From Candidatus Poribacteria bacterium (GTDB taxonomy: Bacteria > Poribacteria > WGA-4E > WGA-3G), in NCBI GenBank assembly GCA_012270865.1, contig JAAXHL010000014.1:26860-90859 (forward strand): 64,000 bases of DNA. Reading direction: 5' to 3'. The notes under the pieces are model-generated. The model saw nothing but the letters and a program-made list of their open reading frames with translations, did no database searches and was not told the origin of the DNA. The position numbers and the translations under genes were made by a program. This document shows positions 33,331 to 41,835 of this stretch, one piece after another; position 1 is the first letter of the stretch; each line of letters starts with the position of its first letter.

Positions 33331-33654
33331 CTAAACCGTGATAACCCGCTGTTGCCCCTCTCTGTATCCTGAGGGCGTAATGCGAATCTCAATATCGCGG
33401 TTGAGTCGATTCAGAAACGTCAACAGCCGTTCGACGCTATAATGATTAAACTTTCCTTTTTTGAGTCGTGAGATTTCAGGCTGCTTCACGCCGAGAATCT
33501 TCGCGGCTTCCGCTTGGGTGAGCTGACGATCTTCTATAATCCGAAACACTTCAAACCCAAGTTTCGCTTTGAGAAACAGTTCGTCGGCATCTGGCAAGTC
33601 TAAATCCTTAAACACATTGCCTGAACTCTTTTCAAATTCAATCTTCTTGCTCAT
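33331..33654 (-). CDS. XRE-family HTH antitoxin (HigA-like)
   Basis: 107 aa. HTH segment LTQAEAAKILGVKQPEISRLKKGK. Overlaps the upstream toxin gene by 17 nt. Confidence 0.8.
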   Translation of the reverse strand: MSKKIEFEKSSGNVFKDLDLPDADELFLKAKLGFEVFRIIEDRQLTQAEAAKILGVKQPEISRLKKGKFNHYSVERLLTFLNRLNRDIEIRITPSGYREGQQRVITV

Positions 33655-34012
33655 AATTCTTCTCCAGTTCCTGCGCCATTCTGAGGCGTTTGTTGATAAG
33701 GTCTACCTCTTTCTTGGGGGTCTGAATGCCGCGCCTTGATTTTTTCTGAAAACAATGCAGCACATAAACCCTCTCTCCGATTTTCACGGCATACACGGCA
33801 CGATACGTGTCCGTCCTATAATCCGCTCGGATCTCAAAAACCCCTGAGCCAACGCCCTTGAAGGGTTTTGCTGCAGGAGACATGCTTCCCGCCTGTGCAA
33901 TAAACAAAGCGTCCCCTATATCCTTTTGAACGGACTGCGGAAATTCCTTCAGCTTTGCCTTAGAATCCCCGACCCATATAGCCTCTCTTAAGTTCAGTCT
34001 TTCGTGATCCAT
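33638..34012 (-). CDS. RelE/ParE-superfamily toxin of the Gp49/HigB type
   Basis: 124 aa. ...KPFKGVGSGVFEIRADYRTDTYRAVYAVKIGERVYVLHCFQKKS... The toxin-first order is typical of higBA. Confidence 0.75.
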   Translation of the reverse strand: MDHERLNLREAIWVGDSKAKLKEFPQSVQKDIGDALFIAQAGSMSPAAKPFKGVGSGVFEIRADYRTDTYRAVYAVKIGERVYVLHCFQKKSRRGIQTPKKEVDLINKRLRMAQELEKNYEQED

Positions 34013-36186: not shown

Positions 36187-38766
36187 TTAGTTGGAGTTTG
36201 GTGTCATTCTTGATTGTTCCACAACCTTCCACATATAATTCCAAAAGTCGCGGAATACATTCGTACACAAATGTGTTTTCTCTGGACCGATACAATAATC
36301 TGCCAAGCGACTATTATCTATAGTTTCTACGCTTTTAGCAGAAAATGAAACTATTTCCTTGGCCGATTTTATGTCTAAACCTGACAAATACTGTATCATT
36401 TTTCGTTTGATAAAGGGCTTATCTATATTTCCCAAGTTAAGCCTATTTCCACACCTGAATATAATACGATCTAAATAGATTGTAACCACCTTATCTAGAT
36501 GATCAAGGGGCCAGATATTTTTCTTTTTAGGGACCGTCCCATGTATGTTTATTAACTGTTTGGGAAGACTGATTTGCGGCGGCGGCGTTGCTGTGTTTTT
36601 AACCGTGCTATCAGTTTCCAATGCATCGCGCCGTAAAGGAGGGGGTTTACGTTTATGTTGTTTATATGGGGGTTTGGTTGAAACTTCTATCTGTTTGGGA
36701 GACTCAGATGTTCCCCTTGTTTGTTCTGCTTTCCCAAGTTCTATAGGAGGTACGTTTCGAAATTCTGAAATGAATTGACAATTCCCACCATCAAAAACGA
36801 CCAACTCCTGCTCTGCACGAGTCACGGCAACATAGAAAAGTCGTCGTTCTTCTGCCAAATCATTTCTGTCATCGGGCAGGTTATCATACACAGTGTTTAC
36901 AAGAAGAATAACCTTTTCCCACTCTCGCCCTTTCGCAGTGTAAATGTTGAGGATCTCAATCTCTTTTTCACCTCGCCGCAAGATTATTTTTCTTCTATTT
37001 TTTTCACTCGGATCACCTAAATCCTTCCAGTCAATTTCAAACCCTTGGATCTGAAGTTCTGAAAAATCGAGAATATCCTGAATGTCATTGATCTCGCCCT
37101 TCCAGTTGCGAGCCAAAATTCCTACTTTTTTGAGATCAGCCGTTAATAAGTTTGATAGTTCCCTTAACAAAACCTCTTTTACTGTCCCTGTTTTCTGTGG
37201 AGTTTCAAAAATCTTTACTTGATTTTGGGCAGAATTTTTAGCGCAGAGATCTTTGGGAATCCGATCCCGCTTTGGATTGTGTTCAATCAAAGCCTTCGCA
37301 TGCCTAACAATTGTTGAAGTGGAACGGTAATTGCGCGTAATTTTATAATGTGTTACATTTCTCCGTTTTCCAAACTTCTCTCGCATAATTGAAGAATCAC
37401 CACCCCGGAATCCGTAAATTGCCTGATCATCATCGCCAACAGCAAAGAGATTTTCTGAAAAAAGGTCTATCAAGCGAAAATCAATAGGTGATATATCCTG
37501 AAATTCATCAACAAAAACATAACGATGTTTGTCGCGATAGTCTTGGTAAAGATCAGGATGGGTTTCAAGTAGGTGTGCCGAGTAGATAAGCATATCAAGA
37601 AAATCAATAGCATCAGCTGCCTTTCTTCTTTCTTCATACCTTTCAGCAAATGCGCGGAGGACAGGATCCAAGATTTTATCAGGATTGAACAAACCTGTGT
37701 TAACCTGCCGTTTTGCTTTTTCGACATCCTCTCTCAGATCGTCAAATCTTTTCATTAGATTTTCAAACTTTTCGGGATGCGCTAAGACTTGGTTGTAGGA
37801 AATATCGAAATACTGGCAGAATACCTCAATAAGAAGTTGATTACTATATCTTGCTTTTTCTGGATCTTCTCGGTTAAACACCGCCCAGTTTTTGTGATCT
37901 TTAATCTCATTTGCGATATGAGTAGAAGCCTCTGTCCAAGGCACTTCTGTACAAATAACCTCAAATTTAAATCGTTTATTTCCTTCATTTTCGATTATTT
38001 TACGGATACTTTCTGAATCTGTTGTATACCCGATGTAAGCAGTAACATCTGTCAGTGATTTGATTTTATAGATAGTTACAAGAACGTTGCTGCTTTGACT
38101 TACGACTTGTTCCATTCCGTGAACGAGGTTAAACACAGATCGATTTCTATAGTAATTAATCCAATATTTCTCTCGAGGATAAGCTATCGCACCTTTCACC
38201 CACTCAATTACATCAAAGTCAAAATGCTCTTCGCCTTTCTGGATTGCATTACGTAGTCCTCGGTTTGATGAATCAGTGCGGTGTTGATGCTCTCGAAATC
38301 CTGGATCCATAGTTTGTCCAATATAACACCGACCTGTGGTTGCCCCTTCAAGTTTATAAATAGCAACATCTGCAGTTCGAGTTTCTCGGTCTAATAATCT
38401 CTTTTCCTCATTAATGACTCGTCCAATTTCCTTTTCGTTCCATGTATCAGGTTCCTTACTAAATCCTAACAACTCATAACGATTCGTAATAAGGTCTTTT
38501 CCAAATGTATGAAGGGTACAGATTTTATGTTTCCCTTGCCTCAAAAGTAGTTCATTTGAAAGCCTCTCTGTCATTTCGTCAGCAGCGGCGTTAGTGAAAG
38601 CAATCGCAAGGATATGCTCCGGATCCACGTTGTGTTCACGGATTAGATGTAAAATTCGTTCTTTGATAACTGTGGTTTTTCCGCTGCCAGGACCTGCCAC
38701 AACGAGGGCAGGTCCCTGAAAATGTTCCACGGCTTTTTGCTGGTTTTCGTCTAATTTCAGTGTCAT
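36187..38766 (-). CDS. UvrD-like SF1 helicase with inserted GIY-YIG nuclease module(s) and novel C-terminal extension (helicase-nuclease B)
   Basis: SF1 motifs: AGPGSGKT; ILAIAFTNAAADEM (Ia); FVDEFQD (II); VGDDDQAIYGFRGG (III); TRNYRST (IV); YTAKGREWE (V); YVAVTRA (VI). GIY-YIG core at aa 133-212 (AIYKL...GRCYIGQT...REHQH...SSN...REKYWINYY). Degenerate second copy at aa 228-300. aa 671-859 are unassigned. Confidence 0.85.
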   Translation of the reverse strand: MTLKLDENQQKAVEHFQGPALVVAGPGSGKTTVIKERILHLIREHNVDPEHILAIAFTNAAADEMTERLSNELLLRQGKHKICTLHTFGKDLITNRYELLGFSKEPDTWNEKEIGRVINEEKRLLDRETRTADVAIYKLEGATTGRCYIGQTMDPGFREHQHRTDSSNRGLRNAIQKGEEHFDFDVIEWVKGAIAYPREKYWINYYRNRSVFNLVHGMEQVVSQSSNVLVTIYKIKSLTDVTAYIGYTTDSESIRKIIENEGNKRFKFEVICTEVPWTEASTHIANEIKDHKNWAVFNREDPEKARYSNQLLIEVFCQYFDISYNQVLAHPEKFENLMKRFDDLREDVEKAKRQVNTGLFNPDKILDPVLRAFAERYEERRKAADAIDFLDMLIYSAHLLETHPDLYQDYRDKHRYVFVDEFQDISPIDFRLIDLFSENLFAVGDDDQAIYGFRGGDSSIMREKFGKRRNVTHYKITRNYRSTSTIVRHAKALIEHNPKRDRIPKDLCAKNSAQNQVKIFETPQKTGTVKEVLLRELSNLLTADLKKVGILARNWKGEINDIQDILDFSELQIQGFEIDWKDLGDPSEKNRRKIILRRGEKEIEILNIYTAKGREWEKVILLVNTVYDNLPDDRNDLAEERRLFYVAVTRAEQELVVFDGGNCQFISEFRNVPPIELGKAEQTRGTSESPKQIEVSTKPPYKQHKRKPPPLRRDALETDSTVKNTATPPPQISLPKQLINIHGTVPKKKNIWPLDHLDKVVTIYLDRIIFRCGNRLNLGNIDKPFIKRKMIQYLSGLDIKSAKEIVSFSAKSVETIDNSRLADYCIGPEKTHLCTNVFRDFWNYMWKVVEQSRMTPNSN

Positions 38767-38800: not shown

Positions 38801-38847
38801 GAACTTTAATGTTATGAACTTTAATGTTATGAACTTTAATGTTATGA
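38801..38847. repeat. perfect tandem repeat, 15 bp x3 (+2 nt): gaactttaatgttat
   Basis: Units at 38801-38815, 38816-38830 and 38831-38845. Located between the extended -10 box and the start codon of helicase-nuclease B. Confidence 0.95.
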
Positions 38848-39017: not shown

Positions 39018-39266
39018 TTATTTGAAAATAGCGACGATAATCGAAATGATAATAGCACCAACGGCACACGCGGTCGTTATCCAGTTTCGCATCCCCGCAA
39101 TCGCGCTTTGTTTACCTTTGAGTTCCGATATACCGTTCTCAACAGTGCGTAGCCGGGCATCCATTCCATCTAAACGCTGATTAACTTCTGCGAAATTTGT
39201 TCTAACTTCTTCTCTGATTTGATCAAAACCGTCTTTCATCAATTGGTAGAGTTCTTCATTTGTCAT
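39018..39266 (-). CDS. 82-aa coiled-coil, C-terminally membrane-anchored protein (XhlA-like architecture)
   Basis: N-terminal heptad-like helix (FAEVNQRLDGMDARLRTVENGISELKG), then a single C-terminal TM segment (ITTACAVGAIIISIIVAIF). Starts 47 nt downstream of helicase-nuclease A. Confidence 0.6.
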   Translation of the reverse strand: MTNEELYQLMKDGFDQIREEVRTNFAEVNQRLDGMDARLRTVENGISELKGKQSAIAGMRNWITTACAVGAIIISIIVAIFK

Positions 39267-39313: not shown

Positions 39314-41041
39314 CTATTTTGCATCACCTTCTTTTTTAAATTGCCTTCTCGCACGCCAATAAGCGAACTGCCGGAGATAGTAACCGATATTTTTTTCGAT
39401 TTTCTCGAACTCTGGCACGAATGGACACCTCCCACCGAGGACGACGAGTTCTGTCTTCGCACGCGTCATTGCGACATAGAAGACACGACGCTCCTCTGTC
39501 AGTTCACTATCACGACGCGGAAAGCGACGTTCCAACGTGTTATGGATGAGGATGACCTTCTCCCACTCCCTACCTTTCGCTTTGTGGATTGTTGTTATTT
39601 CAGGTGCTGCCGGATGGTTGCCAAGCATCTCTTGAATCTGATCGGTTTCGTAGTTGGTGCGCGCTAAAACAGCAGTATCTTCGGACGATTCCAACTCGCG
39701 TGATAACGTGGCTGCAACGGTTTCAGGGGTCGTCTCTACGGTTTTTATGCGTTGTTGGGTCGGGTTGTAGGCGCGGAGGTCTTTACGGATACGGGGTGTG
39801 TTGCGCTCAATCAACGCTCTGGCATGCTCAACGATTGTCGATGTGGAACGGTAATTGCGTGTGATCTCATATTTTGTTACGTTCTTCCTATCCGTGAATG
39901 CAAGCATAATCTCGGAGTTACCACCACGGAATCCATAGATCGCCTGATCGTCGTCGCCGACAGCGAAGAGGTTTTCGGATAAGAGCTCAATCAGTCGGAA
40001 ATCGGCGGGTGCGATGTCTTGGAACTCGTCAACGAGGACGTACGGGTACTTTTCAGAATAGGTTTGACAGAGATCAGGGTTCGTCTCAAGTAGATTTGCG
40101 GCGTGGATAATCATGTCCTCGAAATCGACAGCATTCGCTTCGGTTTTGAGGATTTCGTATTTTATAGCAAATGCGCGCGCCACTGGGTCGTCAAGTGTCT
40201 TCGGGTCGAACAATCCTGTCGTGACCTGTCGTTTCGCGCGCATGACCGTCTCCTTTATCCCGTCGAAACGATCGCGGAGGTTCTCGAAATCTGGGTGTGT
40301 GTCGAAATTTTCTTCATAAGGGATACCGAAATGCTGACAGAACATCTCAAGGACCAGTTGGTTGCTGTAGTGCCTACGGAGTGGGTCGGCACGGTTAAAC
40401 ACACTTGTCCGTTCTCTGTAGTATGCGATCCAGTGTGCTTCTCGACGATTTGCCTCTCGTCCTGGCATATACTCAATTACTTTAAAACTGAATTGTGTCT
40501 CTCCTTCGGATCGGATCGCCTGTCGGAGTCTGTCGTTTGATGAGTGCGTGAAATGTTCTTTTTTCCGCCGTTCAGGGTTTGTGGTTTGCCCGATGTAGCA
40601 CTTACCGGTCTTTGTGTTCTCAATTTTATAGATGGCGACCTCAATTGTTGCGGCTTCCCGCTCAATCTGTCTCCGTTCTTCAGCGATGATTTTGTCAATC
40701 TGTCCCGACCAAATTTCAGGGATATGGCTAAAGCCTGCGCGTTCATAGTTTTCGGTGATAATGTCTTTGCCGAAGGCGTGGAGTGTACGGATGACAGGTG
40801 TGCTGGATGTAGCGTGGTCTGATGCTGCGAGTGTGCGTCCGACACGGGTTTCCATCTCTTCAACGGCTTTTCTGTTAAAGGCGATGGCAAGGATATGTGA
40901 TGGTGGGATATTGTGTGTCTGGATGAGATTTAGAATCCGTGCCGTAACGACTGTGGTTTTACCGCTGCCGGGGCCTGCAATGACGATTGCCGGTCCTGTG
41001 AAGTGGTTGACGGCTCTTTCTTGGTTTCTGTCGAGATTCAT
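39314..41041 (-). CDS. minimal UvrD-like SF1 helicase with inserted GIY-YIG nuclease module (helicase-nuclease A)
   Basis: SF1 motifs: AGPGSGKT; ILAIAFNRKAVEEM; LVDEFQD; VGDDDQAIYGFRGG; TRNYRST; IHKAKGREWE; YVAMTRA. GIY-YIG core at aa 133-216 (AIYKIENTKTGKCYIGQT...RRKKEH...HSSN...REAHWIAYY). Alignable along its whole length with 36187-38766. Confidence 0.88.
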   Translation of the reverse strand: MNLDRNQERAVNHFTGPAIVIAGPGSGKTTVVTARILNLIQTHNIPPSHILAIAFNRKAVEEMETRVGRTLAASDHATSSTPVIRTLHAFGKDIITENYERAGFSHIPEIWSGQIDKIIAEERRQIEREAATIEVAIYKIENTKTGKCYIGQTTNPERRKKEHFTHSSNDRLRQAIRSEGETQFSFKVIEYMPGREANRREAHWIAYYRERTSVFNRADPLRRHYSNQLVLEMFCQHFGIPYEENFDTHPDFENLRDRFDGIKETVMRAKRQVTTGLFDPKTLDDPVARAFAIKYEILKTEANAVDFEDMIIHAANLLETNPDLCQTYSEKYPYVLVDEFQDIAPADFRLIELLSENLFAVGDDDQAIYGFRGGNSEIMLAFTDRKNVTKYEITRNYRSTSTIVEHARALIERNTPRIRKDLRAYNPTQQRIKTVETTPETVAATLSRELESSEDTAVLARTNYETDQIQEMLGNHPAAPEITTIHKAKGREWEKVILIHNTLERRFPRRDSELTEERRVFYVAMTRAKTELVVLGGRCPFVPEFEKIEKNIGYYLRQFAYWRARRQFKKEGDAK

Positions 41042-41071: not shown

Positions 41072-41425
41072 CTACAATATTTGTAAAAGCACTCCGATTT
41101 TATCTAAAATTTCATGTACGGTATAATGAGGCAGGGAACACCAAAACTCCACATTTCTCTCCTGCCAATCAAGACTCTTGACCTGATCTGCAAGAACGAC
41201 ATCCTTTACATCTAACCCTTCTGGAATAACGACCTCAAAAGAGTTGTTTCCGCCCCTCGTAGTAATTGGACAGAAGATCGCCAAATTCCGAGAACTTATA
41301 TTATATTCCCATGGACTAAGGACAACGGCAGGGCGACGACCCGCCTGTTCATGACCGGTTTGGGGATCGAAATTAATCCAAACGACATCGCCGGGGACCG
41401 GAACGTACTGTGTTAAATCTACCAT
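41072..41425 (-). CDS. mazF: MazF/PemK-family endoribonuclease toxin
   Basis: Motifs GDVVWINFDPQTGHEQAGRRPAVVLSP, ...CPITT... and LADQVKSLDW, typical of MazF/ChpB. Its ATG overlaps the upstream stop codon (ATGGTAG). Confidence 0.88.
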   Translation of the reverse strand: MVDLTQYVPVPGDVVWINFDPQTGHEQAGRRPAVVLSPWEYNISSRNLAIFCPITTRGGNNSFEVVIPEGLDVKDVVLADQVKSLDWQERNVEFWCSLPHYTVHEILDKIGVLLQIL

Positions 41426-41835
41426 ACTTCATTGCCCACTGATGGTCCCGTGTCTACCTCACCTTGCCCACCATCTTCTGGCATTTGGGCTAAAAGTTCT
41501 TCAAGCGTAAATTTGGGTTTCCCGCGGCGTGGCGGTGGTGGCGTGCGGTGCGGCTTGAGCTTTCCAGATTTGACAGCTTCACAGAACAAATCATAATCCG
41601 GCATTTGGGCTAAAAGTTCCTCAAGCGTAAATTTCGGTTTCCGGCGGCGTGGAGAGGGTGGCGTGCGATGCGGCTTAATAGTTACATCTGTAGCATCGGA
41701 TGGAACGCCTGAAGTGGCTACTTGCTCATCTTCTGCGCTGTGTGGCACGCTTGAAGTCCTGATGTATTTGACATACGCTATAAAAATTAAGCATTCTTTA
41801 TAGGACATAATTGCCTCCTTGTATAAGGATACCAC
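41419..41835 (-). CDS. MazE-like antitoxin with duplicated toxin-binding segment and no recognisable AbrB/SpoVT domain
   Basis: The C-terminus KFTLEELLAQMPEDGGQGEVDTGPSVGNEVW parallels E. coli MazE ...[30 protein letters not shown]. The N-terminal 60 aa are unlike an AbrB swapped hairpin. The start codon is uncertain. Confidence 0.55.
   Translation of the reverse strand: MVSLYKEAIMSYKECLIFIAYVKYIRTSSVPHSAEDEQVATSGVPSDATDVTIKPHRTPPSPRRRKPKFTLEELLAQMPDYDLFCEAVKSGKLKPHRTPPPPRRGKPKFTLEELLAQMPEDGGQGEVDTGPSVGNEVW
41480..41676. repeat. in-frame direct duplication, two 77-bp copies 120 bp apart
   Basis: 41480-41556 and 41600-41676 differ at 7 of 77 positions by hand count. Each copy encodes KPHRTPPxPRRxKPKFTLEELLAQMP. 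Confidence 0.85.

Follow-up and report, generated by a model that had tools for sequence, protein, structure and literature searches.

A GIY-YIG nuclease core of homing-endonuclease type nested within subdomain 1B of a 2B-less UvrD-family helicase from Candidatus Poribacteria

How does the catalytic core of a homing endonuclease come to lie in the middle of a helicase, and what might it do there? The question is raised by a 64,000-nucleotide stretch of DNA (the window; GCA_012270865.1, contig JAAXHL010000014.1) from Candidatus Poribacteria, a sponge-associated, uncultivated phylum, in which two neighbouring genes, the helicase A and helicase B of an earlier note and here named helA and helB, each encode a UvrD-type helicase carrying a GIY-YIG segment within its motor. 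We propose, with a probability of roughly 0.6, that the segment in HelA is a domesticated homing-endonuclease core that has become a fixed part of a single-chain helicase-nuclease, probably one engaged in genome maintenance.

The body of HelA is that of a superfamily 1A (SF1A) helicase of the UvrD family. Pfam recognises both UvrD-helicase (PF00580, 206 bits) and UvrD_C (PF13361, 81 bits), the former as a single continuous match (HelA residues 4-385 against profile positions 2-269) that encloses the GIY-YIG domain, and the helicase motifs GPGSGKT, DEFQD, VGDDDQAIYGFRGG, NYRS, KGREW and EERRVFYVAMTRA are kept throughout an alignment of 32 sequences of the A and B types. The insert falls between motif Ia (ILAIAFNRKAVEEM) and motif II (D338-E-F-Q-D342), as the earlier note had read from the sequence alone. 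In a phmmer search of PDB, HelA 3-94 aligns with residues 13-107 of the UvrD of D. radiodurans (4C2U) and HelA 285-473 with residues 175-374, with further pairings of 401-473 with 295-374 and of 471-535 with 556-625. Residues 375-555 of that enzyme, its 2B subdomain, have no counterpart in HelA, as had been anticipated from the short stretch between motifs IV and V. The region from motif Ia to motif II (HelA 95-336) corresponds to subdomain 1B and is ~120 residues longer than that of UvrD, ~85 of the extra residues being nuclease.

An AlphaFold2 model of the whole protein (predicted local distance difference test, pLDDT, 75; predicted template modelling score, pTM, 0.65; pLDDT of the insert about 90) places the nuclease after the first of the 1B helices, which DSSP assigns to residues 114-132, 227-238, 255-271, 286-301 and 307-331. 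In this model helix 114-132 leads into strand 134-142 with one residue between them, so that the N-terminal junction of the nuclease with 1B looks rigid, while at its exit a short loop is followed by helices 227-238, 255-271 and 286-301. Because of the 4C2U alignment and the model, we place the nuclease within 1B, a subdomain that in turn lies inside the RecA lobe 1A. The original assignment of the insert to the N-terminal RecA lobe thus stands as regards the lobe, and is to be refined as regards the site, which is the accessory subdomain 1B, an insertion in 1A, and not the RecA core. Foldseek searches with the whole model return UvrD, PcrA and Rep at E about 1e-18, with AdnB, AddA and RecB next. 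HelA therefore has the domains and motifs of the UvrD/Rep/PcrA family, without the complete 1A/1B/2A/2B layout and without orthology to its named members: it scores 219, 173 and 196 bits against the NCBIfam equivalogs for PcrA, UvrD and Rep, whose cut-offs are 911, 1144 and 951.

The inserted segment is readily assigned to a family, its matches being far too strong to be due to chance. The translation of 40394-40645 on the minus strand, IEVAIYKIENTKTGKCYIGQTTNPERRKKEHFTHSSNDRLRQAIRSEGETQFSFKVIEYMPGREANRREAHWIAYYRERTSVFN (residues 133-216 of HelA), is exactly the peptide quoted in the earlier note (IEVAIYKIENTKTGKCYIGQ...SVFN), and residues 136-210 match the Pfam GIY-YIG family PF01541 at 38.6 bits (gathering cut-off 22.6, E=1.3e-9). 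Searched alone against phage homing-endonuclease PHROGs, the insert finds phrog_7168 (E=1.4e-19), phrog_314 (3.9e-19) and phrog_5123 (2e-13), with coverage confined to the first ~85 positions of profiles of length 152-574; among PADLOC models it matches 'HEase' and, weakly, UzuA, and no other. Its score against the NCBIfam model for group I intron endonucleases, TIGR01453, is below the cut-off (50.9 versus 56.05 bits) because profile positions 3-86 of 215 alone are covered. The best sequence match in PDB is the I-TevI catalytic domain (1MK0/1LN0), with HelA Y138, Y149, R159, H163, E201 and N216 aligned to I-TevI Y6, Y17, R27, H31, E75 and N90. A separate AlphaFold2 model of residues 124-226 (pLDDT 86.8) has the topology β-β-α-α-β-α, and its best Foldseek match is again I-TevI 1MK0/1LN0 (template modelling score 0.74-0.82, root-mean-square deviation 2.1-2.2 Å, 27% identity), with the UvrC N-terminal domain (1YD3) a distant second; this is a comparison of the kind that the earlier note had suggested as a check. 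Sequence, profile and fold matches agree on the I-TevI/Seg branch that had been named for the insert, and we regard it as clearly derived from the homing-endonuclease branch of GIY-YIG nucleases.

It is important to note how little of a homing endonuclease is present. The region after N216 consists of conserved helicase 1B helices, with no I-TevI-like linker, zinc finger or helix-turn-helix (HTH) there, and together with the partial coverage of TIGR01453 this agrees with the earlier view that only the catalytic core was retained. HelA and HelB both score above the PF01541 threshold and have the catalytic residues of the family, and HelA has its predicted fold, whereas HelA has neither the two-domain layout of GIY-YIG homing endonucleases (nuclease, linker, DNA-binding module) nor their mobile context (intron-encoded or free-standing, with a patchy distribution).

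The catalytic residues are strongly conserved. In the 32 A-type and B-type sequences no variation is seen at Y138, Y149, G151, R159, H163, S168, N169, E201 or N216, nor in the helicase motifs. When a hidden Markov model (HMM) of the insert was built and run on all 355 fetched proteins, and 183 full-length first copies were scored, retention was complete for Y138 (183/183) and nearly so for Y149 (181/183), R159 (180/183), H163 (181/183) and E201 (180/183), with N216 kept in 168/183. The two tyrosines, arginine, histidine and glutamate first noticed in a single sequence are thus conserved across the family, as is the equivalent of I-TevI N90. Pairwise identity among the 51 species-level orthologues of HelA averages 76% in the insert and 79-80% in the motor domains, with dN/dS values of 0.110 (insert) and 0.088 (motor) by the Nei-Gojobori method (302 pairs with dS 0.1-1.2). 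The nuclease is therefore under purifying selection as strong as that on the ATPase. The earlier note had listed loss of the fold or of the catalytic residues as outcomes that would speak against it; the fold is instead predicted to be intact and the residues are kept, and the insert is, on these models, a genuine GIY-YIG fold whose active site is complete and under strong constraint.

We next consider where this architecture occurs. More than 120 protein clusters at at least 79% identity all combine PF01541 with PF00580, and every named member is from Candidatus Poribacteria. In an exhaustive HMMER comparison with 1.84 billion representatives (50% identity), about 27 of the best 150 matches carry the insert (some of them fragments), always at about residues 125-220 in full-length members, and no close insert-less homologue is present among those 150. 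The only high-scoring matches without the insert (P0229, P0213) are short fragments or chains aligning only from about HelA 211-218 onwards, apparently truncated at the N terminus. The next-best matches (235-273 bits) align only to about HelA 250-550, that is the C-terminal part of 1B and the motor, and are 2B-less UvrD modules in giant proteins of 2.2-6.5k residues or stand-alone helicases of ~440-800 residues. The nearest insert-less relatives are P0235, P0239, P0242 and P0243, of 2,273-6,513 residues, one with a trypsin-like peptidase domain.

A scan of one genome per species (185,579 species; pattern search plus tblastn, with alignment of the insert and its flanks) found the full segment at 54 loci, 52 of them in metagenome-assembled genomes (MAGs) titled Poribacteria, closed 5-6 Mb chromosomes among them, and two in assemblies titled 'uncultured bacterium'; being pattern-based, the scan may have passed over fusions that are highly divergent or arose independently. 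Its only other matches were, in a Fibrobacter MAG, one of 29 residues and, in a Desulfatiglandales MAG, a free-standing GIY-YIG protein of 148 residues. A phage origin of the whole architecture was rejected: in a tblastn search of the insert and flanks against 50,697 phage records no match covers at least 80% of the query, those found being free-standing Seg-type endonucleases only, and a Foldseek search of BFVD returned ordinary viral UvrD-like helicases. Full-length helA orthologues could be extracted from 50/54 loci and are 62-95% identical across species. purQ lies upstream in 41/54 species loci (as purL-purQ) and DUF6785 downstream in 26/54. In recovered Poribacteria genomes helA is a vertically inherited syntenic gene, beside a small hotspot, and the architecture is ancient and has so far been found in Poribacteria only. 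In one closed Poribacteria assembly (OZ219753.1, L057 5707-7512) the helA orthologue contains an internal stop codon, the result of pseudogenization or of an error in sequencing.

HelB, encoded downstream of helA on the same strand, is 47-52% identical to HelA and carries the module at the equivalent position (PF01541 at residues 136-208, 25.6 bits versus 22.6), as had been claimed for helicase B. BLASTP aligns this first copy with HelA 1-216, and its catalytic columns are invariant. With the insert at the same place in both paralogues and at all 54 loci, the fusion is older than the divergence of helA and helB, and not a recent invasion, which was also the earlier conclusion. HelB differs in having a second copy, absent from the earlier note, in which BLASTP pairs HelA 125-216 with HelB 220-298, a 13-residue deletion takes the Arg/His segment, and the glutamate is replaced by isoleucine. 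In none of the second copies (n=86) is the R159 column occupied by Arg or the E201 column by Glu. This copy is, to judge by its residues, a conserved but catalytically dead pseudo-nuclease, and probably serves as a scaffold or DNA-binding module. The duplicated module also occurs in two A-like orthologues (L059, L060; P0187, P0188).

The C-terminus of HelB-type proteins, which are about 750 to 1490 residues long, is variable. That of HelB itself is a 190-residue extension with nothing recognisable in it; in long forms (1.1-1.5k residues) three S1 domains accompany a complete GrpE domain (77.8 bits), and others have TPR repeats. One GrpE-bearing long form is at L006 8001-12449 (P0131); NCBI names some such proteins 'nucleotide exchange factor GrpE'. 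A helB-type second helicase is adjacent to helA in 11/54 species loci only, and since it is absent beside helA in most, HelA must work without HelB in most Poribacteria. HelB is thus a faster-evolving accessory paralogue of HelA, whose variable C-terminus probably redirects or regulates the same chemistry. The helB leader contains an extended -10-like element (TGGTATAAT) with a perfect tandem repeat of GAACTTTAATGTTAT (15 bp x 3.1) just downstream, which may be an operator. A similar TGTGGTATAAT precedes the small open reading frame (ORF) between the two genes, within the 3' end of helA.

SF1A monomers translocate 3'->5' on single-stranded DNA. We hypothesize that an ancestral 2B-less SF1A helicase of Poribacteria captured, inside subdomain 1B, an I-TevI/Seg-type core of ~85 residues without linker or DNA-binding domain, and that the captured core was then domesticated and fixed. 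The motor would bind single-stranded DNA, translocate 3'->5' like other SF1A enzymes, and so supply the DNA binding and positioning that the bare nuclease core is missing. Deletion of 2B in UvrD1 unmasks helicase activity, 2B being auto-inhibitory (PMC13646824; review PMC13238157), and HelA, lacking this subdomain, may unwind as a monomer. A GIY-YIG enzyme has a single active site with one metal ion, and those homing endonucleases of the family that act as monomers nick one strand after the other (PMC3664794); moreover, the nuclease domain of I-TevI is able to cleave when joined to DNA-binding proteins other than its own (PMC4065259). A one-metal, single-site nuclease held near-rigidly on the first 1B helix of HelA would be expected to nick or cut a strand close to the junction of single- and double-stranded DNA, and from this junction-side position cleavage of the strand would be tied to ATP-driven translocation. 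Given the synteny of helA in recovered Poribacteria genomes, and the strong constraint on it, we favour a role in genome maintenance, most likely in chromosomal DNA processing (repair, recombination, or removal of damaged or aberrant strands) and not in homing.

Several points weigh against this proposal. The whole-chain model is of moderate quality overall, with motifs III-IV below a pLDDT of 50, and all of the sequences come from uncultivated MAGs; the linker that aids activity in engineered Tev fusions (PMC4065259) is absent from HelA. In addition, variable conflict genes cluster around helA (in the window a PemK toxin-antitoxin pair and a Gp49-like toxin; at other loci an HNH gene and restriction-modification genes of Tsp45I type), and its nearest insert-less relatives are modules of giant multidomain proteins, one of them with the peptidase domain mentioned above. 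Both are compatible with anti-phage or anti-plasmid defence, in which HelA, with or without HelB, would be a nuclease-helicase immunity protein like Nhi, Hhe or Gabija that attaches to foreign DNA, at ends or replication intermediates, and breaks it down. The patchy, fast-evolving helB, with its sensor-like C-termini (GrpE, S1 or TPR), would fit, and the top PADLOC matches of HelA are GajB and an RT-associated helicase, although these reflect generic UvrD similarity. Yet helA behaves like a housekeeping gene, holding its place between purL-purQ and DUF6785 in most of the 54 species at 62-95% identity and a dN/dS of about 0.1; no GajA/OLD-type or other known defence partner is adjacent to it, and no PADLOC model specific to its architecture was matched. 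We consider a defence role the main rival to our proposal, possible if unlikely. More tentatively still, HelA may be a self-sufficient enzyme that both nicks and unwinds, a constitutively active 2B-less motor whose own rigidly mounted GIY-YIG nickase makes or processes its entry site, with HelB as a derived regulator. Such an enzyme would combine UvrC/MutH-like incision and UvrD-like strand removal in one polypeptide and might provide a Poribacteria-specific route to excision repair or end processing; HelB would act via its dead copy, and in the long forms GrpE might provide a link to DnaK and the S1 domains a link to RNA.

That helA and helB are tandem same-strand paralogues, in the window and in several other MAGs, also invites comparison with heterodimeric end-resection machines such as AdnAB and AddAB, with GIY-YIG in place of the RecB-type nuclease. 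The presence of AdnB, AddA and RecB among the Foldseek matches of HelA is in keeping with this, as is a HelB that combines an intact first nuclease copy and ATPase motifs with a dead second copy, which would mirror the inactive modules of AddB. However, the rarity of an adjacent helB, the position of DUF6785 directly after helA in many loci, the promoter-like element belonging to helB and the separate small ORF between the two genes make an obligate pair of this kind improbable. It is far less probable again that the insert is a selfish or removable element, whether a still-mobile in-frame endonuclease invasion, an intron or intein, or a decaying non-catalytic relic. Its ancestry clearly lies in the homing-endonuclease branch, and GIY-YIG domains do invade genes, HsdR being an example (PMC1564403). 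But its position is identical at 54/54 loci and in both paralogues, with no insert-less allele found, and we reject a recent invasion of helA on these grounds. Removal from the transcript or the protein, which the earlier note had listed as an outcome that would count against it, was rejected as well: an Rfam scan of the whole window returned no family, hence no group I or II intron, and the junctions, read by eye without intein models, show no intein signature (no N-terminal Cys/Ser/Thr, and no C-terminal His-Asn followed by Cys/Ser/Thr). The reading frame through the insert is continuous and its flanks are conserved, the insert has no DNA-binding or targeting domain, and its catalytic residues and dN/dS speak of purifying selection and not of decay; only the second copy in HelB is relic-like.

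The single-chain helicase-nuclease that we favour resembles several known systems without coinciding with any of them. With I-TevI/Seg the HelA insert has the fold and catalytic constellation in common, but it is without linker, zinc finger, NUMOD or HTH and is embedded in a helicase, non-mobile and vertically inherited. With UvrD, PcrA and Rep, HelA shares the 1A/2A motor, all conserved motifs and a helical 1B; it lacks 2B, and its 1B equivalent is roughly twice as long and holds the nuclease. RecB, AddA and AdnA-AdnB are, like HelA, UvrD-like motors fused to a nuclease, and the tandem genes of the window recall adnA-adnB. In those enzymes, however, a C-terminal PD-(D/E)xK nuclease lies behind the motor, whereas in HelA the GIY-YIG nuclease is modelled in 1B, on the front or junction side. 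No PD-(D/E)xK family is among the Pfam matches of HelA or HelB, HelA scores far below the cut-offs of the addA and recB equivalogs, and the two-gene arrangement is found in the window and at the 11 loci noted above and not at the others. Gabija GajB is, like HelA, a compact UvrD-like helicase, and gives the highest PADLOC scores as well as PDB sequence matches. GajB itself contains no nuclease, and its partner GajA, of OLD type, provides one. We rejected membership of HelA in Gabija, the similarity being that of UvrD proteins generally and the neighbours being PemK, a small membrane protein, DUF6785 and purQ, with no GajA-like gene.

Joining of GIY-YIG to other NTP-driven DNA motors is not without precedent. 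COG3410/DUF2075 proteins have an N-terminal GIY-YIG domain. A 2006 survey of the superfamily describes Tetrahymena Tlr8p, a superfamily 1 (SF1) helicase with a C-terminal GIY-YIG, and the HsdR of M. capsulatus (superfamily 2), with an internal Slx1-type GIY-YIG at about residue 800 that is missing from an 80%-identical homologue; it lists no GIY-YIG within UvrD (PMC1564403). All three combine nuclease and motor in one chain, as HelA does, and in HsdR the nuclease is likewise internal, but they belong to other helicase families and use other attachment points. The HsdR insertion is also recent and sporadic, while that in HelA is ancient, fixed and under purifying selection. Searches of the literature on GIY-YIG with UvrD, SF1 helicases or Poribacteria did not turn up the HelA architecture.

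Helicase-nuclease fusions (RecB, AddA, AdnAB, Dna2, Cas3) are central to repair and immunity, and to our knowledge all characterised SF1A helicase-nucleases have a PD-(D/E)xK nuclease appended behind the motor. The theme is thus a known one, and what HelA adds is a different nuclease superfamily inside 1B of a 2B-less motor. HelA offers a natural experiment both in the control that 1B and 2B exert over UvrD-family helicase activity and in how a bare, weakly specific GIY-YIG core might be targeted by a translocase instead of a sequence-reading domain. It would also illustrate clearly how a homing-endonuclease core can be domesticated as part of a conserved gene of the cell, and the gene could serve as a lineage marker for this sponge-associated uncultivated phylum. 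As a compact (575-residue) predicted ATP-driven nickase or cutter it is a possible engineering scaffold, in the manner of Tev-TALE and TevCas9. If HelA were indeed to nick and unwind by itself, it would have no counterpart among characterised helicase-nucleases, in which the nuclease trails the motor.

Table 1. Coordinates, within the window, of helA, helB, their nuclease modules and neighbouring features
Feature	Position	Strand	Description	Basis
helA	39314..41041	minus	575-aa (amino acid) 2B-less UvrD-family (SF1A) helicase with nested GIY-YIG nuclease	ORF, Pfam
helA GIY-YIG catalytic core	40394..40645	minus	aa 133-216	Pfam, PDB match, domain model, conservation
helA subdomain 1B equivalent of UvrD	40034..40759	minus	aa 95-336	phmmer to 4C2U, DSSP of model
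helB	36187..38766	minus	859-aa helA paralogue with nested module, predicted dead copy and C-terminal extension	
helB GIY-YIG copy 1	38128..38373	minus	aa 132-213; catalytic residues intact	Pfam, BLASTP
helB GIY-YIG copy 2	37873..38085	minus	aa 228-298; degenerate, predicted pseudo-nuclease	BLASTP
Small ORF between helA and helB	39018..39266	minus	82-aa coiled-coil protein with C-terminal transmembrane helix	ORF
Tandem repeat, helB 5' leader	38801..38847	none	15 bp x 3.1, perfect; putative operator	
PemK/MazF toxin	41072-41425	minus	pair with 138-aa ORF spans 41072-41835	
Gp49-like ORF	33638-34012	minus	HigB-type toxin (PF05973), downstream of DUF6785 gene	

On the minus strand of the window the genes run purL, purQ, a 144-aa membrane protein, the 138-aa ORF, the PemK toxin, helA, the 82-aa ORF, helB, DUF6785/DUF6784 and a GFO/IDH/MocA oxidoreductase (Table 1). 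The 82-aa ORF follows helA in 19/54 species loci, including loci without helB, and is only loosely tied to it; it has no Pfam match, and its PHROG matches are weak and XhlA/'hemolysin'-like. The slot between the 144-aa membrane protein and helA varies, being occupied by the PemK toxin-antitoxin pair in the window, by an HNH gene at three other loci (L001-L003) and by nothing at another (L006). The 138-aa ORF upstream of PemK contains an internal 26-aa direct repeat, KPHRTPPxPRRxKPKFTLEELLAQMP, twice. In a related Poribacteria contig (L001 3224-5034) the interval between a PEP-hydrolase-like gene and purL holds a restriction endonuclease of Tsp45I type with an N6/N4 methyltransferase, a pair missing from this place in the window. 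The Gp49-like toxin ORF is a second toxin-antitoxin-like element near the helA locus.

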